DNA of 25,494 bases, taken from IMG/VR virus record IMGVR_UViG_3300045988_104440, positions 1-25,494 of that record; one strand, given 5' to 3'. A program made the position numbers and the translations under genes. The stretch comes from a virus. Taxonomy: Duplodnaviria; Heunggongvirae; Uroviricota; Caudoviricetes. How positions within the stretch are numbered: position 1 is the stretch's first letter; every line of letters begins with the position of its first letter. Below, piece by piece: positions 7,169 to 13,243 of this stretch. The notes under the pieces are model-generated. The model did no database searches, was not told the origin of the DNA, and saw nothing but the letters and a program-made list of their open reading frames with translations.

Positions 7169-8395
7169 ATGTCAGATCAGCGTTTTATAAGTAAGATTCA
7201 GGATACTAGGGTTGATTGTTGGTCAGCTTTAGTTGAATTTAATGTTAAAGACTATCTTGGGCTTGCAGAAAAAGCTTACGTTAATAGAGGTGGTATACGA
7301 CATCAACGCGAAGCTCTTAAAACCACAACAGCGAAACGCATTCGCACTAGGCTCGTCGAGGACTTGAGGCGAGGCGCGGTAATCCCTCCTCTGGTCATTG
7401 GTATAGTCGCTGACAATGACGATTGGCAGACAATTGAAGGTATCTCAGAGTCCGAGCAAGTAAAGCAACTCCTTAAAAAATATTATGAAGAATTGTCGAT
7501 TATTGATGGGATGCAACGCACCACAGCTCTTAAAGAAGCATTAGCTTTAGATGAAAACGTAGCCGATCATGTGATTAGGGTAGAAGCCTGGATTGCGAAA
7601 GGCACAGAGAGTTTAATATATCGAATGCTTGTTTTAAACACTGGGCAGGTACCATGGAACCTGAAACAACAACTAGAGGTTGTTTATGCTCCACTTGTGA
7701 AAACTATTAGCCAAAAAGTCAACTTTCGTAGGCTTCTCTCTGCATCGGATAGACGATGGCAAGGAGGGGAGTTTAAAACATACTCGTTGATTGAGTCTTA
7801 TATAGCTTTTGGATTGCGTCGAACTGAGGTCGATACTCAAGAGAGTCTAGCCGATGAGTTTTCAAGGCTAGATATCGCAGAAGCGCTCACCAATAAAAAA
7901 TATGACCATTATTTTTATCGTGTCGTGCAAATGTTAGTTAATTTCGATATTGCGCTATCGATATATAATGAAGTGCAGAATATCGATATTGCAGACCCTT
8001 CTGAGGGTTCCGATAGTCTAGAGGTAGGAATAAAAGCCAGAAAATTAGTAAGAGGCCGAAATATTTTTGATACTCAAGCAGCGCGAGTTGGTTTTATCGT
8101 TGCTTGTGCAGTCAGCATCCTTGGCAGAGTTGGCATGGACAAGGAAGAAGAAGTCAGTGAAGAGAGATGTGCCTTACTAGAGGAATCTTGTGCTGCTCTT
8201 GTTAAAAGGATTACCGCCTTAAATAGAGAAAATTTAGAAGAATTTTTATCGCTAGATGTTTTAGCTGAAAAATTGTCCCGGAGACCGAGTTCAGCAGTTG
8301 GTAGATGGGAGCGGTCATTCTTTGAGGCTGCGTTCCGAGTATTAGTAGAAGAAAACTTTAATATACCCAACATGGAGCCATGCTGGCGGGCATAA
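7169..8395 (+). CDS. Hypothetical protein (408 aa), candidate ParB/DndB-like (DGQHR-type) protein; cargo gene 1
   Basis: Complete ORF with a GGAG ribosome-binding site. HQRE (aa 44-47) followed about 65 aa later by IIDGMQRTTAL (7504..7518 encodes DGMQR), resembling the QR...DGQ(Q/H)R signature of ParB/Srx-fold DndB/DUF262-like proteins. AT-rich, on the strand opposite to the late genes. Confidence 0.6.
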   Translation: MSDQRFISKIQDTRVDCWSALVEFNVKDYLGLAEKAYVNRGGIRHQREALKTTTAKRIRTRLVEDLRRGAVIPPLVIGIVADNDDWQTIEGISESEQVKQLLKKYYEELSIIDGMQRTTALKEALALDENVADHVIRVEAWIAKGTESLIYRMLVLNTGQVPWNLKQQLEVVYAPLVKTISQKVNFRRLLSASDRRWQGGEFKTYSLIESYIAFGLRRTEVDTQESLADEFSRLDIAEALTNKKYDHYFYRVVQMLVNFDIALSIYNEVQNIDIADPSEGSDSLEVGIKARKLVRGRNIFDTQAARVGFIVACAVSILGRVGMDKEEEVSEERCALLEESCAALVKRITALNRENLEEFLSLDVLAEKLSRRPSSAVGRWERSFFEAAFRVLVEENFNIPNMEPCWRA

Positions 8396-8396
8396 T

Positions 8397-9491
8397 ATGT
8401 CTAGAAATAAAATAGAAATGTCGACGGACATTTTTCAAAAAATACATGATTCTGCATCTGCTCAGGACTCTACGTACATAGCCGATAATGAAAAAAGATG
8501 GCTTGCTCGTAAAGATAACGAGGATTTAAACCTTATGATTAATGCAGAGGTTAACGTTCTTATTTTGGGGGCGAAGACGTTCGCCGTCTCTATTAAGAAT
8601 GGTTCTGATAACTACTTCTGTTTTAGCGGTTTAGATATCCCCGAACAACTTCCCGCCAGTCTCACTGAGATTGAGCCCACGCCTGGCATCTTTTCATGCG
8701 TTGTGTTCACCGTCAATCTCCCAGCATTAGCTACAGCGGCTAAGGCTAGAGACATTTTAGAACAGCAATACCTGGGGCAGGAAGGTTACGTCGGGCATGA
8801 ACTTAACGAGATCGCTCCACTCTTTCCAAAACTATACTTTGTTAAGGCTAACGAAAATATAAGCACTACTTTTTTAAATAATTTAGAGCGTGTAGCTGGT
8901 GCCTATATTGCTGCAGGATACGTTAGCCACCCTTTAGAGGTTAATGATAATTTAAAGTTGCGACTACTGTCTCTATTTGAAGTTGGAGCAGAAACCATAC
9001 CGTTTCGTCTACCTCTGCAGGGTCTATTATCTTATAATTGGTCATCGTTATTTTTGGATCTTTATCGATGCTTAGAGCAGTTATATACCGCGCAAAAGTT
9101 GAAAAATTTAGTCACTAAACTCCCATACAAAGGTACTTTGGCAGATCTCGCATATTTACTGGAAGATGAATTGTCATGGAGACCAAAAGAGCAGGATGCA
9201 TTAGCTAGTATACTGGCATGTTCAACTGAAAACACACGTTCGAAAATTCTATCTGCATTCAAACTCAACGTGCCCGAGTTAACCGAGTACTCGCCAAGCA
9301 AGTGCGCAAGTAATATATATAAGCTGAGGAATTCTCATGTTCATTTTCGCCCAGCAATGAAAGCAGAAAATAAACCCACCGAACAGTGGAATGAAATTTT
9401 GATAGCGATGTGTGATGCCGTTGATGACGTTTATGAAGCTCTCGGTGCTGAATTCTTAATAGATAGGTCAAACTTAGAGTCGGTCAGGTAA
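8397..9491 (+). CDS. Hypothetical protein (364 aa), unknown family; cargo gene 2
   Basis: Complete ORF starting 1 nt after the stop of cargo gene 1 (TAA-a-ATG), implying translational coupling. No motif I can assign confidently; a C-terminal R-x4-H (LRNSHVH, 9324..9344) is noted. Confidence 0.55.
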   Translation: MSRNKIEMSTDIFQKIHDSASAQDSTYIADNEKRWLARKDNEDLNLMINAEVNVLILGAKTFAVSIKNGSDNYFCFSGLDIPEQLPASLTEIEPTPGIFSCVVFTVNLPALATAAKARDILEQQYLGQEGYVGHELNEIAPLFPKLYFVKANENISTTFLNNLERVAGAYIAAGYVSHPLEVNDNLKLRLLSLFEVGAETIPFRLPLQGLLSYNWSSLFLDLYRCLEQLYTAQKLKNLVTKLPYKGTLADLAYLLEDELSWRPKEQDALASILACSTENTRSKILSAFKLNVPELTEYSPSKCASNIYKLRNSHVHFRPAMKAENKPTEQWNEILIAMCDAVDDVYEALGAEFLIDRSNLESVR

Positions 9492-9924: not shown

Positions 9925-10452
9925 TTATTGCGGCATTTCCGGCCATTCAGGATTTGTAGGATCCACACGACTGACCAGAACGCTGTAGCGTTCCCAAGCC
10001 TCCAGCCGTGTGCGCTCCTCCTCTGTTGCCATGTTCAGCCTGACAGCACGCTCTAGCGGCAAAATCACGGATTCAGCATCTGCAAGAAGTCTGGCTTTCC
10101 TGTTTTCTGCCTGCAGTTGCAATTCCTCTGCCGTATAAATTCGTTTGATCACTGTGCCATCCTTAAACATCCAGTTCCCTGAAATGTCCGCCCGTCGGTT
10201 AGCAGTAATATCCGCCACTTCAACAACACTTAATCCATCCGGTCTGATAGCTGTCACATCCTTTTCCACATAGCGGATGATATTATCTTTGTCGTACGCT
10301 ATTTTTATCGTGTCATCAGCAAAATACTTTTGTTCTTCGTACCAGTTCTTACCATCTTCTGAAAAAAACCAGACAACATCAAAATTCTTTGTCAATTGAT
10401 ATTGTTCAACCGTTTTTGGATTACCCGCCGTAATATTTTTTAAATGCTGCAT
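9925..10452 (-). CDS. G: Tail fibre assembly protein G (175 aa)
   Basis: ORF directly downstream of H with a 3-nt gap; length equals P2 gpG. Confidence 0.75.
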
Positions 10453-10455
10453 AAA

Positions 10456-12702
10456 TTATACCTGCGCCACGTTATACCATGTCCCGTTAATGTATTTCTG
10501 CACCGGTCTGTAATATACGCCACCAATGTTATCGGCAGAGTTTGAGCCGGTATCCTGAACAATAATGCCGGTATATACGCAACCTGACGGAGCCTGATGC
10601 GTCCATGTAGTACCATTATTTGCTGGTTTATATGTAGATGCACCGCCCAGTCGCATGTCTCTCACATAACGTGAATCTGACTCAGCTTTGGTGTATGCAC
10701 CAACATCTCCCGCTGATGGTTTTCGTGTTGTGGTATAGAAATCAGACCAGCCAGATTCAAAACCATAACCATCACGGGCTGACCTGTAAGATATACCGCC
10801 ATTTTTATAATTCACACGAAACTGTACAGCCGGGCAGCTACCAGCATTTATATTAAAGTGAAGAATTAATGCAGATGCTCCCCCAATCAGAGCGTTGTAT
10901 GCGCCACTGTCCCAATTCCATCCAACGGCTGTATCACCATTAACCGTATTACCTGTCTGCCGAAGTGCAAATGCACCGACATTTCTGGCATTAAGGGTAA
11001 TATCTCCAGAACCATCAAAGGCAACACCTGCTATTTTCCTCGGTGTTTCGAGTTTTGAGGCTGTTGCAGCATTTCCTGAAAGGTTGGAAATAAATGGATG
11101 TGAGCAGTAATAACCGCGCCCATTTTTAAAATCCAGAATAGCCTGTGCATTCGTGCTTTCTGTGGCAGGATTAGTTGCCCCCCACTTATATGTCGTCTGA
11201 CCGACGACATAATCCTCTGTCGGAACAATAACCGTTAGCCCTTCCTCTGCAAGAATTTGCACAGGGAAAGCTCTGGCTTCAACATAAAAAACACTACATA
11301 CATCATCATCTTTCAGGCTTGTAACAATGGAATGGATTGAACGCTCATTGGTCTGATACGTCCAGAAATAGCCTGCCGCATATGAACCGCGATCAGTCCA
11401 TCCTCCGGGCATAACCATGCCATTAAACTCGCAGTTATTCATTACATAATCGCCGTTATAACAACCAGTGGAAATAACGACGCGGGATGCCATTTCTCCT
11501 GAAAGGCTGGCAGCACGGCGAAAGATAACGGGATACCACTTCCCGGCAACGACATTTGCAGGGGCTGCAAACGAATACTTTCGCATTCCCTTTTTCTTAT
11601 CCACTTCACCTTTGCTGTAAACATTAATGTTACTCAGGAAGCGTTCTTTATCAGGAATATCCGCACCGTTCTTATCTTTCTGAAGACGTTTTTCAGCATT
11701 GTCATTGGCAGACTTCACCGCTTTTGGTGTTGCGGCCAGCGTTTCAGAATCACTGTTGGTGGCGCTACTGAGCTGGACAAGACCTTTTCGCGCTGTGGTG
11801 GCATCCTGTGCAGTGTATTTCCCGTTAGCAAGGTCATACGCTGTCTTAACCGCCTTTGGCGTTGCGGCCAGCGTTTCAGAATCGCTGTTGGTGGCACTAC
11901 TGAGCTGAACAAGGCCTTTTCGCGCGGTGGTGGCGTCCTGCGCGGTGTATTTGCCATTAGCAAGGTCATATGCTGCCTTAACCGCTTTTGGTGTTGCGGC
12001 GAGCGTTTCAGACGCGCTGCTGGTCGCACTACTGAGCTGGACAATACCTTTTCGCGCTGTGGTAGCGTCCTGTGCGGTATATTTCCCGTTAGCAAGGTCA
12101 TACGCGGCCTTTACCGCTTTCGGCGTTGCGGCCAGTGTTTCAGACGTGCTGTTGGTCGCATTGCTTAACTGAGTAAAACCTTTTGCGGTCAGCGAGGCGT
12201 CCGGGTGACGTCGTGACTGTTCATGCTCTGCAATTTTGTCATCAACGTAATCCTGCGTCGCCATCACCGTTGTGGTGTCAATGGTCAGCTCCACTGAGGC
12301 CACACTGCTGACGATGATGACCATGCGACAGGTCTGCGAACGCCCTGAGCCTTCGGCAAGAGCTGGCTTATAACTTTCGGCCATGTTCGCCACGGCAATT
12401 AATGTTCCCGCATCATCGTACAGGCCAAGCTCACGCATCCAGAAACCGCCCACCTCCGGCGGAATAACCAGCTCTGCGATAATATAATTACTGTTTCGTT
12501 TGTCCTGGCTGATTTTGTTCAGCGCATGTCGCCAGACTTCATGGATAAGCCCGGTCTGTCCGGCATCCGGGACAGGCAATTTACCACCGCCATCCCCGAC
12601 GGCCATCGTGGTAATGTTGACCTTCCGCCCTCCCGGCGCGGTTGCCGCTGCCAGCTTTGCTGCACCGGCAGTGGTGATAACGGTTCTGAATTTTGTGCTC
12701 AT
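10456..12702 (-). CDS. H: Tail fibre protein H (748 aa) with internal tandem repeats
   Basis: Long ORF after baseplate genes I/J. Contains four 44-aa repeats with the SETLAATPKAVK(A/T)AYDLANGKYTAQDATTARKG motif. Longer than the 669 aa I recall for P2 gpH. Confidence 0.85.
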   Translation of the reverse strand: MSTKFRTVITTAGAAKLAAATAPGGRKVNITTMAVGDGGGKLPVPDAGQTGLIHEVWRHALNKISQDKRNSNYIIAELVIPPEVGGFWMRELGLYDDAGTLIAVANMAESYKPALAEGSGRSQTCRMVIIVSSVASVELTIDTTTVMATQDYVDDKIAEHEQSRRHPDASLTAKGFTQLSNATNSTSETLAATPKAVKAAYDLANGKYTAQDATTARKGIVQLSSATSSASETLAATPKAVKAAYDLANGKYTAQDATTARKGLVQLSSATNSDSETLAATPKAVKTAYDLANGKYTAQDATTARKGLVQLSSATNSDSETLAATPKAVKSANDNAEKRLQKDKNGADIPDKERFLSNINVYSKGEVDKKKGMRKYSFAAPANVVAGKWYPVIFRRAASLSGEMASRVVISTGCYNGDYVMNNCEFNGMVMPGGWTDRGSYAAGYFWTYQTNERSIHSIVTSLKDDDVCSVFYVEARAFPVQILAEEGLTVIVPTEDYVVGQTTYKWGATNPATESTNAQAILDFKNGRGYYCSHPFISNLSGNAATASKLETPRKIAGVAFDGSGDITLNARNVGAFALRQTGNTVNGDTAVGWNWDSGAYNALIGGASALILHFNINAGSCPAVQFRVNYKNGGISYRSARDGYGFESGWSDFYTTTRKPSAGDVGAYTKAESDSRYVRDMRLGGASTYKPANNGTTWTHQAPSGCVYTGIIVQDTGSNSADNIGGVYYRPVQKYINGTWYNVAQV
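11713..12200 (-). repeat. In-frame 132-bp tandem repeat array (about 3.7 copies) inside H
   Basis: Units begin at 11713, 11845, 11977 and 12109, exactly 132 bp apart; the last copy is more diverged. This explains the spurious ORFs on both strands here. Confidence 0.75.
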
Positions 12703-12712
12703 TATTCCTCAC

Positions 12713-13243
12713 TTATCCGGGGTAAACCGTAATTACATCGCCGTCATAAGCCACACCACCGACGAACAGGTAGCCGGGAATGTCCCGGGTAATGTTCAGA
12801 CCAATAAGGTGGCGGCTTGCAGGTTTGGCATCAGCAATCAGCCGTTCCATTTCCTGATACATTGCCTCTGTGATACCGCTTTCCAGTACACCAATATCAA
12901 GCCGGAAGGTGCCGGGCGGGTCACTGTTTTCCCACCACTCCGTCACGTTGATGAGATAGCCGAGCGGCTCCACCACACGCCGGATTGCACCTATAGTGCC
13001 CTTATGACAGTGGATGAAATAGGCATCGCGGATAACGGCGCGTTTTGTCGCTTCCGGCCACTTTTCATCCCACCTGTCGACCGAAAACGCCCACGCCAGC
13101 CACGGCAGCAAATTTGCCGGGCAGGTGTCCGGGTTCCACAGCTCACGAATCCTGACCGGCGTTTTTTCAATTTCCGCACAGGCTTTTGCGGCGGCGACTT
13201 CAAGCGGTGATGAGCCGGTCGGCAGCAGTCGCGAATCACTCAT
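12713..13243 (-). CDS. I: Baseplate protein I (176 aa)
   Basis: Position between J and H; 8-nt overlap with J; length equals P2 gpI. Confidence 0.8.
   Translation of the reverse strand: MSDSRLLPTGSSPLEVAAAKACAEIEKTPVRIRELWNPDTCPANLLPWLAWAFSVDRWDEKWPEATKRAVIRDAYFIHCHKGTIGAIRRVVEPLGYLINVTEWWENSDPPGTFRLDIGVLESGITEAMYQEMERLIADAKPASRHLIGLNITRDIPGYLFVGGVAYDGDVITVYPG

Follow-up and report, generated by a model that had tools for sequence, protein, structure and literature searches.

The sole long open reading frame that runs across the repeat array described here is that of gene H, which lies on the minus strand of the window (the whole stretch of DNA that was analysed, 25,494 nucleotides), a correction to the earlier reading. 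The product matches PHROG tail fibre families (best E 8e-244), and the gene shares ~98% nucleotide identity (97.9-98.0%) with the genes annotated as tail fibres in Peduovirus P22H4 and phage 9W, and 98% with the one so annotated in E. coli NCTC9088. The same 2247-bp gene is present in 17 complete E. coli chromosomes and in three phage records, which represent two distinct phages, 9W and P22H4. By Pfam, Tail_P2_I and Baseplate_J lie upstream of H and Caudo_TAP downstream, a gene order that is also that of annotated P2, Wphi and P22H4 (Table 1). The product has both marks of a P2-type gpH, namely an N-terminal attachment domain of family PF12571, whose identity is 99% or more in 80 IMG/VR relatives, and a place in the V-W-J-I-H-G late operon followed by the chaperone. 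The assignment as tail fibre gene H in an earlier reading made from the sequence only (hereafter the sequence-only reading) was thus correct: the I, J and G neighbours and the identity to the P22H4 and 9W fibre genes place it in a P2-like prophage. NCBIfam gave no family for H or for the two cargo genes.

Table 1. Gene H, its neighbours and the parts of the fibre gene, with positions in the window
Feature	Position	Strand	Basis
Gene I, baseplate/tail protein directly upstream of H	12713..13243	-	PF09684 Tail_P2_I, E 8e-56; synteny with P2 V-W-J-I-H-G
Gene H, tail fibre protein, 748 aa	10456..12702	-	ORF and translation, Pfam, PHROG
N-terminal domain, aa 1-151, conserved proximal fibre part	12250..12702	-	PF12571 Phage_tail_fib, E 1.3e-58, full profile length
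Repeat unit 1 (u1), aa 168-211, first-position unit, DASLTAKGFTQLSNATNSTSETLAATPKAVKAAYDLANGKYTAQ	12070..12201	-	PF03406 stretch
Repeat unit 2 (u2), aa 212-255, internal, most divergent	11938..12069	-	
Repeat unit 3 (u3), aa 256-299, internal	11806..11937	-	
Repeat unit 4 (u4), aa 300-343; core 11713-11805, last 13 codons (11674-11712) diverged into the distal-module junction	11674..11805	-	
Post-array segment, aa 344-362, like phage Mu fibre protein S	11617..11673	-	phmmer, aa 288-362 against Mu S residues 99-173 (5yvq, 9ki1, 8ju3)
Presumed receptor-binding region at the C-terminus (aa 572-746), Mu S/S'-like	10465..10989	-	Domain match (E 5e-59) to residues 318-486 of the Mu S/S' chimera 8ju3
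Gene G, tail fibre assembly chaperone	9925..10452	-	PF02413 Caudo_TAP, E 1.5e-33; position as P2 G

Tandem Repeats Finder reports one array (11713-12160, period 132, 3.4 copies, 87% matches, no indels, score 672) and a repeat search finds three 226-nt copies at a spacing of 132 nt that are 84-86% identical; the array is far beyond chance. In translation it comprises four in-frame 44-codon units (11674-12201, aa 168-343), each made of a 31-residue core and a 13-residue linker. The linker of u4 has diverged (SANDNAEKRLQKD), and for this reason detectable DNA repetition ends at 11713. The product contains four stretches of PF03406 (Phage_fiber_2), with a score of 259.1 bits against a gathering cut-off of 22 (E 1e-78), the best stretch spanning profile positions 1-41 of 42; a score above the cut-off and repeats of 44-residue period inside a tail fibre protein place the array in this family. 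A TPR_20 match over the repeats (18 bits, cut-off 25) lay below its cut-off and was dropped as evidence. The four in-frame 132-bp tandem repeats of the sequence-only reading are therefore real (a period of 44 codons, a single reading frame, four PF03406 stretches), as is their placement just after the N-terminal domain, since PF12571 was found at aa 1-151 and the units begin at aa 168. The interval proposed for them agrees in part: 11713 matches the end of detectable repetition, but 11713-12200 holds four cores and three linkers, with a fourth "unit" of just 92 nt.

The further description of the units as near-identical DNA repeats does not hold. Pairs among u1-u4 have 61-86% DNA identity in codon register, the longest in-register exact match between units in the window is 26 bp, and pairs differ synonymously at 8-14 codons and non-synonymously at 4-18, the low non-synonymous counts being those among the three full units, and most of the differences are synonymous; u3 and u2, with 86% DNA and 91% protein identity, differ by 13 synonymous and 4 non-synonymous codons. 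Conservation of the protein together with synonymous drift of the DNA indicates that the units are old duplicates under purifying selection and not the product of fresh duplication. Compared across alleles, the end units are positionally orthologous and the internal units are blurred. The DNA of u1 is 94-98% identical to unit 1 of other alleles, which makes it orthologous by position, and, in the comparison with other Mu-S-type alleles, u4 is 92-97% identical in DNA to their final units. The protein sequence of u2, by contrast with these end units, is unique among 100 distinct units, and divergence peaks in u2, with a mean of 10.8% at the DNA level from 49 other four-copy alleles, versus 1.5% for the N-terminal domain. 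In a comparison with another 748-aa allele (L016), 24 of 46 differences fall within units 1 and 2 (264 nt), and this clustering of differences from close relatives suggests a recombination patch in those two units. Other alleles contain exact in-register runs of up to 197 bp, which point to recent conversion or duplication in those alleles.

To compare copy number, units were counted by HMM in the proteins of relatives at 102 loci whose N-terminal domains are 72-100% identical. Copy number ranges from 1 to 5 in steps of whole 44-codon units, and it varies even where relatives share an N-terminal domain at 99% identity or more. Many IMG/VR loci are draft assemblies, so that some single counts could be assembly errors; finished phage and chromosome records span the same range, with 2-5 copies. 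Alleles with equal flanks and unequal counts include proteins of 772 aa (4 copies) and 816 aa (5 copies) and proteins of 709 aa (5 copies) and 621 aa (3 copies), and the 709-aa allele type occurs in complete E. coli genomes as genes of 2130 bp (5 copies) and 1998 bp (4 copies). One allele type other than that of the window is found with 5, 4 and 3 copies between flanks that are 98-99.8% identical. Units 2-4 of one allele (L110) match units 3-5 of another (L001) at 99-100%, and the difference between the two is consistent with a single breakpoint, in register and within gene nt 570-608, that leaves 22 mismatches over 1998 nt; the C-terminal identity for a further allele (L035) is 0.987. Differing whole-unit counts between shared flanks are the pattern expected of in-register recombination.

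The window's own allele type is different. The 748-aa type has four copies in L016, L078, P22H4 and NCTC9088, in which the units were counted, and four copies, as judged from matched length, in the 40 complete-genome matches listed. With four copies in every relative of this type that was checked there is no sign of instability, and for this allele type the array appears to behave as a fixed feature. The recombinational expansion and contraction proposed by the sequence-only reading, for which a comparison of relatives was the suggested check, therefore finds support in the family, where whole-unit variation from 1 to 5 extends to alleles with shared flanks, but none in the window's allele type, which is invariant at four in the relatives checked and whose units are not near-identical.

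These data also bear on a stronger form of the sequence-only reading, in which the array would be a fast contingency locus, expanding and contracting so frequently within a lysogen culture or phage stock that fibres of mixed length result. Copy number does differ between alleles with equal flanks, and in some relatives the units share in-register stretches of 98-197 bp without a mismatch, which would be good recombination substrates. The window, however, has no near-identical units; its longest exact in-register run, of 26 bp, is close to the shortest length that reportedly, after work of Shen and Huang in 1986, still recombines efficiently through RecA in E. coli. In addition, none of the extra units examined duplicates the adjacent unit exactly, and all relatives of the 748-aa type that were checked have four copies. 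Because the units are not near-identical and the allele type has four of them in every relative checked, rapid switching of copy number within a culture seems unlikely, and a contingency locus of this kind is considered very improbable.

That the four copies are themselves a product of repeat mis-assembly, the true number being different, is less probable still. Draft contigs of relatives do stop inside the array (L040) or 27 codons past it (L060), and a cluster of 404-aa "partial" proteins with 358 members ends 17 residues past its fifth unit. However, the four units of the window differ from one another by 14-39%, so that short reads can place them, and the gene occurs at the same length in the complete chromosomes and phage records cited above. 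The warning of the sequence-only reading about assembly collapse and spurious ORF calls thus receives some support from the two contigs that end in or near the array, but in close relatives in RefSeq a single CDS runs over the array with no spurious ORFs.

The array is followed by a distal part that resembles phage Mu protein S (Table 1); a weak match of the C-terminal region to PF12604 gp37_C (20.6 bits, cut-off 22.5) was not counted as evidence. Megablast matches to phages stop where cores 2, 3 and 4 end (gene nt 726, ~858 and 990), several of them at nt 990, the end of the u4 core. The ...TPKAVK core of the last unit leads into at least five different sequences and is also the joining point of exchangeable distal modules. 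Among the E. coli-type alleles sampled, all those with a P2-type distal module have 1-2 units and all those with a Mu-S-type module have 3-5. Matches to the gene are present in 1846 of 5426 complete E. coli genomes, where the median number of places per genome is 2 and the maximum 12, and ectopic partners are therefore common. Modularity has been demonstrated experimentally for P2: fusion of the N-terminal part of H to distal parts of P1 S/S' or phiV10 yields functional particles, and P2 fibre swaps alter host range (PMC9942202). For L-413C, a published account treats gpH as a recombinant mosaic (PMC7460101).

It is possible, though less likely than not, that in evolution the core serves mainly as a recombination adaptor, that is, as shared homology for swaps of distal modules among P2-like, Mu-like and other fibre genes, with copy number a by-product of crossover sites. 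The exact coincidence of the ends of inter-allele homology with core ends, the unrelated continuations after ...TPKAVK, the abundance of ectopic partners, the segregation of P2-type and Mu-S-type junctions by copy number and the mosaic gpH of L-413C are all in keeping with such a role, as is the fact that Mu S has one copy of the same core and then a continuation of the same kind as gene H. On the other hand, the protein sequence of every unit is under strong purifying selection, which argues for a structural role beyond DNA homology alone; a domain boundary combined with selection for viable chimeras would give the same pattern of breakpoints; and copy number also varies between alleles that share a distal module. 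The adaptor reading is compatible with the explanation preferred below.

Because Mu switches fibres by inversion, and both the distal part of H and its chaperone are like Mu S/U, programmed diversification of the fibre was also considered, either by an invertible segment of the Mu G or P1 C type or by a diversity-generating retroelement acting on H. The chance of this is negligible. Around H-G there are only inverted repeats of 18-29 nt with 76-83% complementarity, no second S'/U' set is present, and the two genes downstream of G have no recombinase-family match, one of them matching the Dazbog protein DzbA and the other having no family match. An invertible segment was rejected on this outcome of the inverted-repeat scan and ORF inspection.

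The explanation that is probably correct is that the array consists of four tandem PF03406 modules in gpH of a P2-like E. coli prophage, that the number of internal units changes by occasional in-register recombination, and that each unit adds a segment to the shaft. The array sits between the N-terminal domain, which binds the baseplate, and an exchangeable Mu-S-like distal part that is presumed to bind the receptor. Across the family, internal units change in number by whole 44-codon steps and show reshuffling and partial homogenisation; positional orthology is kept at both ends of the array, and the distal module always starts right after the last ...TPKAVK core. These patterns suggest occasional in-register homologous recombination, which may take the form of unequal crossing-over or of gene conversion and may involve a single array or two prophages in the same host, at a tempo that would be that of allele divergence and not of a fast switch. 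Each unit would lengthen the proximal shaft of the trimeric fibre by a constant segment, so that the length or reach of the fibre would depend in part on copy number.

The effect on shaft length stays an inference, since modelling and PDB searches gave no usable structure of the repeat. An AlphaFold2 monomer model of aa 149-400, built with a 26-sequence alignment, has a mean pLDDT of 42 and a pTM of 0.21 and is unusable for the repeat fold, and a PDB search by sequence and with a profile of 20 units finds the repeat only in Mu S entries; the text of the Mu cryo-EM paper speaks of "the N-terminus" of gp49 as modelled, with no residue range given there. Literature on PF03406 or the "phage tail fibre repeat" yielded no account of repeat structure or of copy-number variation, and that on repeats in gpH and on variation in fibre length provided background only. 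A further and rather doubtful proposal, prompted by the pairing of unit number with distal-module type in the E. coli-type alleles, is that copy number acts as an adaptive ruler tuned together with the distal module, the units being selected to set the reach of the fibre against the depth of the host surface (O-antigen or capsule) for each receptor class. Were it true, phages could adapt their host range by gaining or losing units, a different route from exchange of the receptor-binding tip.

Practical consequences follow in any case. Annotators and assemblers of P2-like prophages should expect 1-5 copies of a 132-bp unit in H and occasional contig breaks. The boundary after ...TPKAVK is a natural junction between proximal scaffold and distal module that may suit engineered P2/P4 or tailocin fibre fusions, and the natural 1-5 copy series, including the 5- and 4-copy alleles with the same flanks in finished genomes, provides material for tests of shaft length against adsorption and host range. 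The array itself raises no new biological question.

Comparison with known systems places the gene among its relatives. P2 gpH (669 aa) has the same N-terminal domain, the same V-W-J-I-H-G synteny and an array that starts at the same residue, 168, and the two genes are 96.8% identical in DNA over nt 1-726, a stretch that begins with the N-terminal domain and takes in the second repeat as far as the end of its core. P2 differs in having 2 units where the window gene has 4, and its last core is followed by TVMDETNKKAPLN and a distal part of its own, in place of the Mu-S-like segment. With the same N-terminal domain, H of Wphi and pro147 also has 2 units and H of P37 and PsP3 has 3. The fibre proteins of P22H4 (P2_2H4) and 9W have the same length (2247 bp, 748 aa), and P22H4, in which the units were counted, is a propagated phage with a named Peduovirus genome record, the same four repeats and the same distal part. 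Its gene and the host-range effect of P2 fibre swaps lend indirect support to a product that would be a trimeric virion fibre and determine host range. The Mu tail fibre protein S (gp49; 5yvq, 9ki1 and the S/S' chimera 8ju3) has one repeat (residues 111-154) followed by a linker of the same type, DNAxxRLxKDxNGADIP, and a homologous C-terminal domain; it differs in its N-terminal attachment region, in having a single repeat and in the switching of its distal part by inversion of the G segment, a system that the window lacks. The tailocin fibres of Pseudomonas viridiflava, unrelated in host and in fibre sequence, offer an analogy only, as contractile-tail fibres with natural length variants, which have been linked to O-antigen haplotypes and in which length modulates killing breadth (PMC13250502). 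The closest counterpart is the Pfam family itself: PF03406, the "phage tail fibre repeat", was originally recognised in lambda Stf and is present in the collagen-like fibre proteins of EHEC prophages as well; it occurs in tandem in tail fibres, as it does here, and published work regards it as a module conserved among the tail fibres of prophages (PMC3368898). The array differs from that family in nothing essential: it is a catalogued repeat of phage tail fibres, here in a P2-like gene H, and as a feature it is both ordinary and already known.

The only long ORF spanning the repeat array runs from 10456 to 12702 on the minus strand (748 aa), a correction of strand to the call made in the sequence-only reading. 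In Pfam its product matches the N-terminal tail-fibre domain PF12571 over aa 1–151, after which PF03406 (Phage_fiber_2, 'phage tail fibre repeat'; 259 bits versus a cut-off of 22) is matched in four stretches; the array does lie, as had been said, just after the N-terminal domain. Tail-fibre families are matched in PHROGs (best E 8e-244), and the neighbours, Tail_P2_I and Baseplate_J upstream and a Caudo_TAP chaperone downstream, stand in an order that agrees with V-W-J-I-H-G as annotated in P2, Wphi and P22H4. Along its entire length the gene shares 98% identity with tail fibre genes of Escherichia phage 9W, Peduovirus P22H4 and an E. coli NCTC9088 prophage. Domain matches, gene order and these relatives therefore identify a P2-like (Peduovirus) E. 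coli prophage and its tail fibre gene H, confirming the earlier assignment; the repeat is a known family in a known gene, and the same allele is carried by a propagated phage.

One strong array, at 11713–12160, comes out of Tandem Repeats Finder (period 132, 3.4 copies, 87% matches, 0 indels, score 672), and a search for gap-free repeats yields three copies of 226 nt at a 132-nt spacing with 84–86% identity; together with the 44-codon frame of the ORF, these results bear out the claim of four 132-bp units. Each unit, numbered u1–u4 in gene orientation, consists of a 31-residue core (DAxxxxKGxxQLSSATxSxSETLAATPKAVK) and a 13-residue linker (xAYDLANGKYTAQ). In u4 SANDNAEKRLQKD stands in place of the linker, which is why the DNA repetition stops at 11713; the interval first proposed (11713–12200) corresponds to four cores and three linkers. 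Spurious ORFs of the kind that had been warned of do occur mechanically inside the array, but RefSeq annotations of close relatives show a single fibre CDS without such calls.

Coordinates of the repeat units, the distal half of H and spurious ORFs in the window
Feature	Position	Strand	Remark
u1	12070-12201	-	44-codon unit
u2	11938-12069	-	44-codon unit
u3	11806-11937	-	44-codon unit
u4	11674-11805	-	44-codon unit
Distal half of H, aa 344-748	10456-11673	-	mosaic
Spurious ORF	11715-12101	-	out of frame with H
Spurious ORF	11699-11908	+	inside array
Spurious ORF	11927-12172	+	inside array

The description of the units as near-identical DNA does not hold. Pairs compared in codon register are 61–86% identical in DNA and 59–91% in protein, u2 and u3 differ synonymously at 13 codons and non-synonymously at 4, and the longest exact in-register match in the window array is 26 bp; the units are old duplicates whose protein-level similarity is maintained by selection. 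Shen and Huang reportedly found in 1986 that in E. coli RecA-dependent recombination becomes efficient only from a segment of ~26 bp upwards, and frequent slippage is therefore not expected in the window allele. The array is unlikely to act here as a fast contingency locus, given the low identity of its units, the lack of exact duplicates among adjacent units, and a copy number that is invariant within the window's own 748-aa allele type (types being named by H protein length): four units were counted in L016 and L078 (both fetched relatives), P22H4 and NCTC9088, and four copies are present too in the 40 complete-genome matches listed, as judged from matched length. In-register exact matches between units reach 197, 107 and 98 bp in the relatives L018, L073 and L014, respectively. 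Runs of this length indicate recent conversion or duplication; these arrays, being recently homogenised, should therefore recombine much more than that of the window.

That the four copies are an assembly artefact is very unlikely, as the units can be distinguished from one another and the 2247-bp gene recurs in 17 finished chromosomes and in two distinct phages, 9W and P22H4. The assembly risk raised earlier finds modest support among relatives, where one draft contig (L040) stops inside unit 3, another (L060) stops 27 codons past the array, and a 404-aa 'partial' protein cluster (358 members) ends just past the fifth unit. The H ORF of a further relative, L021, ends at 322 aa after three units, suggesting a pseudogene, a frameshift or an assembly error.

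Copy number was compared using the N-terminal domain as bait, which gave 80 IMG/VR loci (bait region at least 99% identical; 75 distinct alleles) and 23 species-representative genome loci; an HMM of the window's four units served to count the copies, and 102 of the 103 loci were scorable. One, two, three, four and five copies are present in 3, 15, 3, 49 and 10 of the 80 IMG/VR loci, and one to four copies in 7, 8, 6 and 1 of the other Enterobacteriaceae loci. Finished phage genomes have two copies (P2, Wphi, pro147), three (P37, PsP3) or four (P22H4), five-unit proteins are present in databases too, and the differences are whole 44-residue steps in every case. The proposed variability thus stands as evolutionary variation (1–5 copies over the scored loci, so that the number is not invariant across the family), but the instability it implied was overstated. 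Among the fetched loci, L032 (IMGVR_UViG_2734482789_000005) has a two-unit, 669-aa P2-type H, and L025, a second contig of the same IMG taxon, has two units as well. Enterobacterial P2-like H genes were also found in genome records titled Vagococcus sp. WN89Y (Bacillota; L090) and Chryseobacterium sp. 18061 (Bacteroidota; L095), with N-terminal domains 79% and 74% identical to that of the window; these labels are likely to reflect contaminated or mislabelled assemblies and not true hosts.

When the post-array parts were clustered at 90% identity, most distal types had one copy number and three clusters were mixed: 772 aa (4 copies) versus 816 aa (5), 709 aa (5) versus 621 aa (3), and 674 aa (1) versus 724 aa (2). 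The 709-aa type has two forms in complete E. coli genomes, of 2130 and 1998 bp, a difference of exactly 132 bp; the longer accounts for 38 of the 60 matches listed and the shorter for 19. One short form, L110 (from NZ_LR882050), has four units, of which units 2–4 are 99–100% identical to units 3–5 of the five-unit allele, with flanks 98% and 99.8% identical, and the entire difference is consistent with one in-register breakpoint at gene nt 570–608. Such a pattern is the hallmark of unequal exchange between adjacent homologous units. In the pairs compared, positional orthology across alleles holds for the first and the last unit (92–98% DNA identity), and internal units are blurred (85–95% to several partners). 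Divergence from other four-copy alleles is highest in u2 (10.8%, versus 1.5% in the N-terminal domain), whose protein sequence is unique among 100 distinct units. Units 1–2 (11938–12201, minus strand, 264 nt) hold 24 of the 46 differences from L016 and 20 of the 39 from L078, the closest alleles, a clustering that suggests a patch acquired from an unsampled allele by recombination or gene conversion.

H is a mosaic protein. Its last repeat and next 19 residues (aa 344–362, a Mu-S-like linker) align with the phage Mu tail fibre protein S (PDB sequences 5yvq, 9ki1 and 8ju3), as do its C-terminal 175 residues (aa 572–746; Mu S/S', E 5e-59 to 8ju3); the middle of the distal half, about aa 365–570, has no PDB sequence match. 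Megablast matches to the window H end at gene nt 726 for P2, at 854–870 for Wphi, PsP3, STYP1 and fiAA91-ss, and at 990 for pro147, HQ103, R18C and P2_AC1, positions that coincide with the core ends of u2, u3 and u4, and the loci examined have at least five unrelated sequences after ...TPKAVK. The core is therefore the boundary between a conserved proximal part and exchangeable distal parts, and plausibly a crossover point for module exchange. Of 5426 complete E. coli genomes, 1846 have H matches, with two places per genome as the median and 12 as the maximum, so that partners for ectopic recombination are common. Among the fetched E. coli-type alleles, the P2-type continuation (TVMDETNKKAPLN) occurs with 1–2 units only and the Mu-S-type (xAYDNAEKRLQKD) with 3–5 only, with no overlap and with total protein length uncompensated. 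The L-413C gpH has been described as a recombinant mosaic (PMC7460101), and joining the N-terminal part of P2 H with distal parts of other origin yields particles that function (PMC9942202). A role of the repeat as recombination adaptor is moderately supported and is compatible with the main explanation, a fibre repeat whose unit number changes in register. An invertible segment was rejected, as there are neither credible inverted repeats nor an alternative gene set, and no recombinase-family match was found downstream of G.

Two co-oriented genes, the second beginning 2 nt past the end of the first, occupy 7169–9491 on the plus strand (opposite to the tail genes), flanked by G and the tail sheath gene FI. 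In PADLOC the product of the first gene (408 aa) is matched by the Dazbog protein DzbA (E 2.8e-50), and there is a weak match to GmrSD_N; for that of the second (364 aa), PADLOC, Pfam and NCBIfam all gave no match. At this position P2 carries fun(Z), the near-identical NCTC9088 prophage a Shedu nuclease and P22H4 a hypothetical gene; the site is the variable cargo/defence hotspot of P2-like phages.

The array is a curated tail-fibre repeat under purifying selection that separates the attachment domain from the distal module, and its unit number changes in register on an evolutionary timescale. Each unit may form a segment of a trimeric proximal shaft, in which case their number would affect its length or reach; the number would change through homologous recombination while the phage is a prophage, either inside one array or between co-resident prophages. 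An AlphaFold2 monomer model was unusable (pLDDT 42). The PDB sequences containing the repeat are Mu S entries only, and the published Mu S model is described as taking in 'the N-terminus', with no checkable residue range. Mu S has a single copy of the window's repeat core, and a linker of the same kind comes after it. By analogy only, length variants of Pseudomonas viridiflava tailocin fibres are tied to O-antigen type and reportedly modulate killing breadth (PMC13250502).
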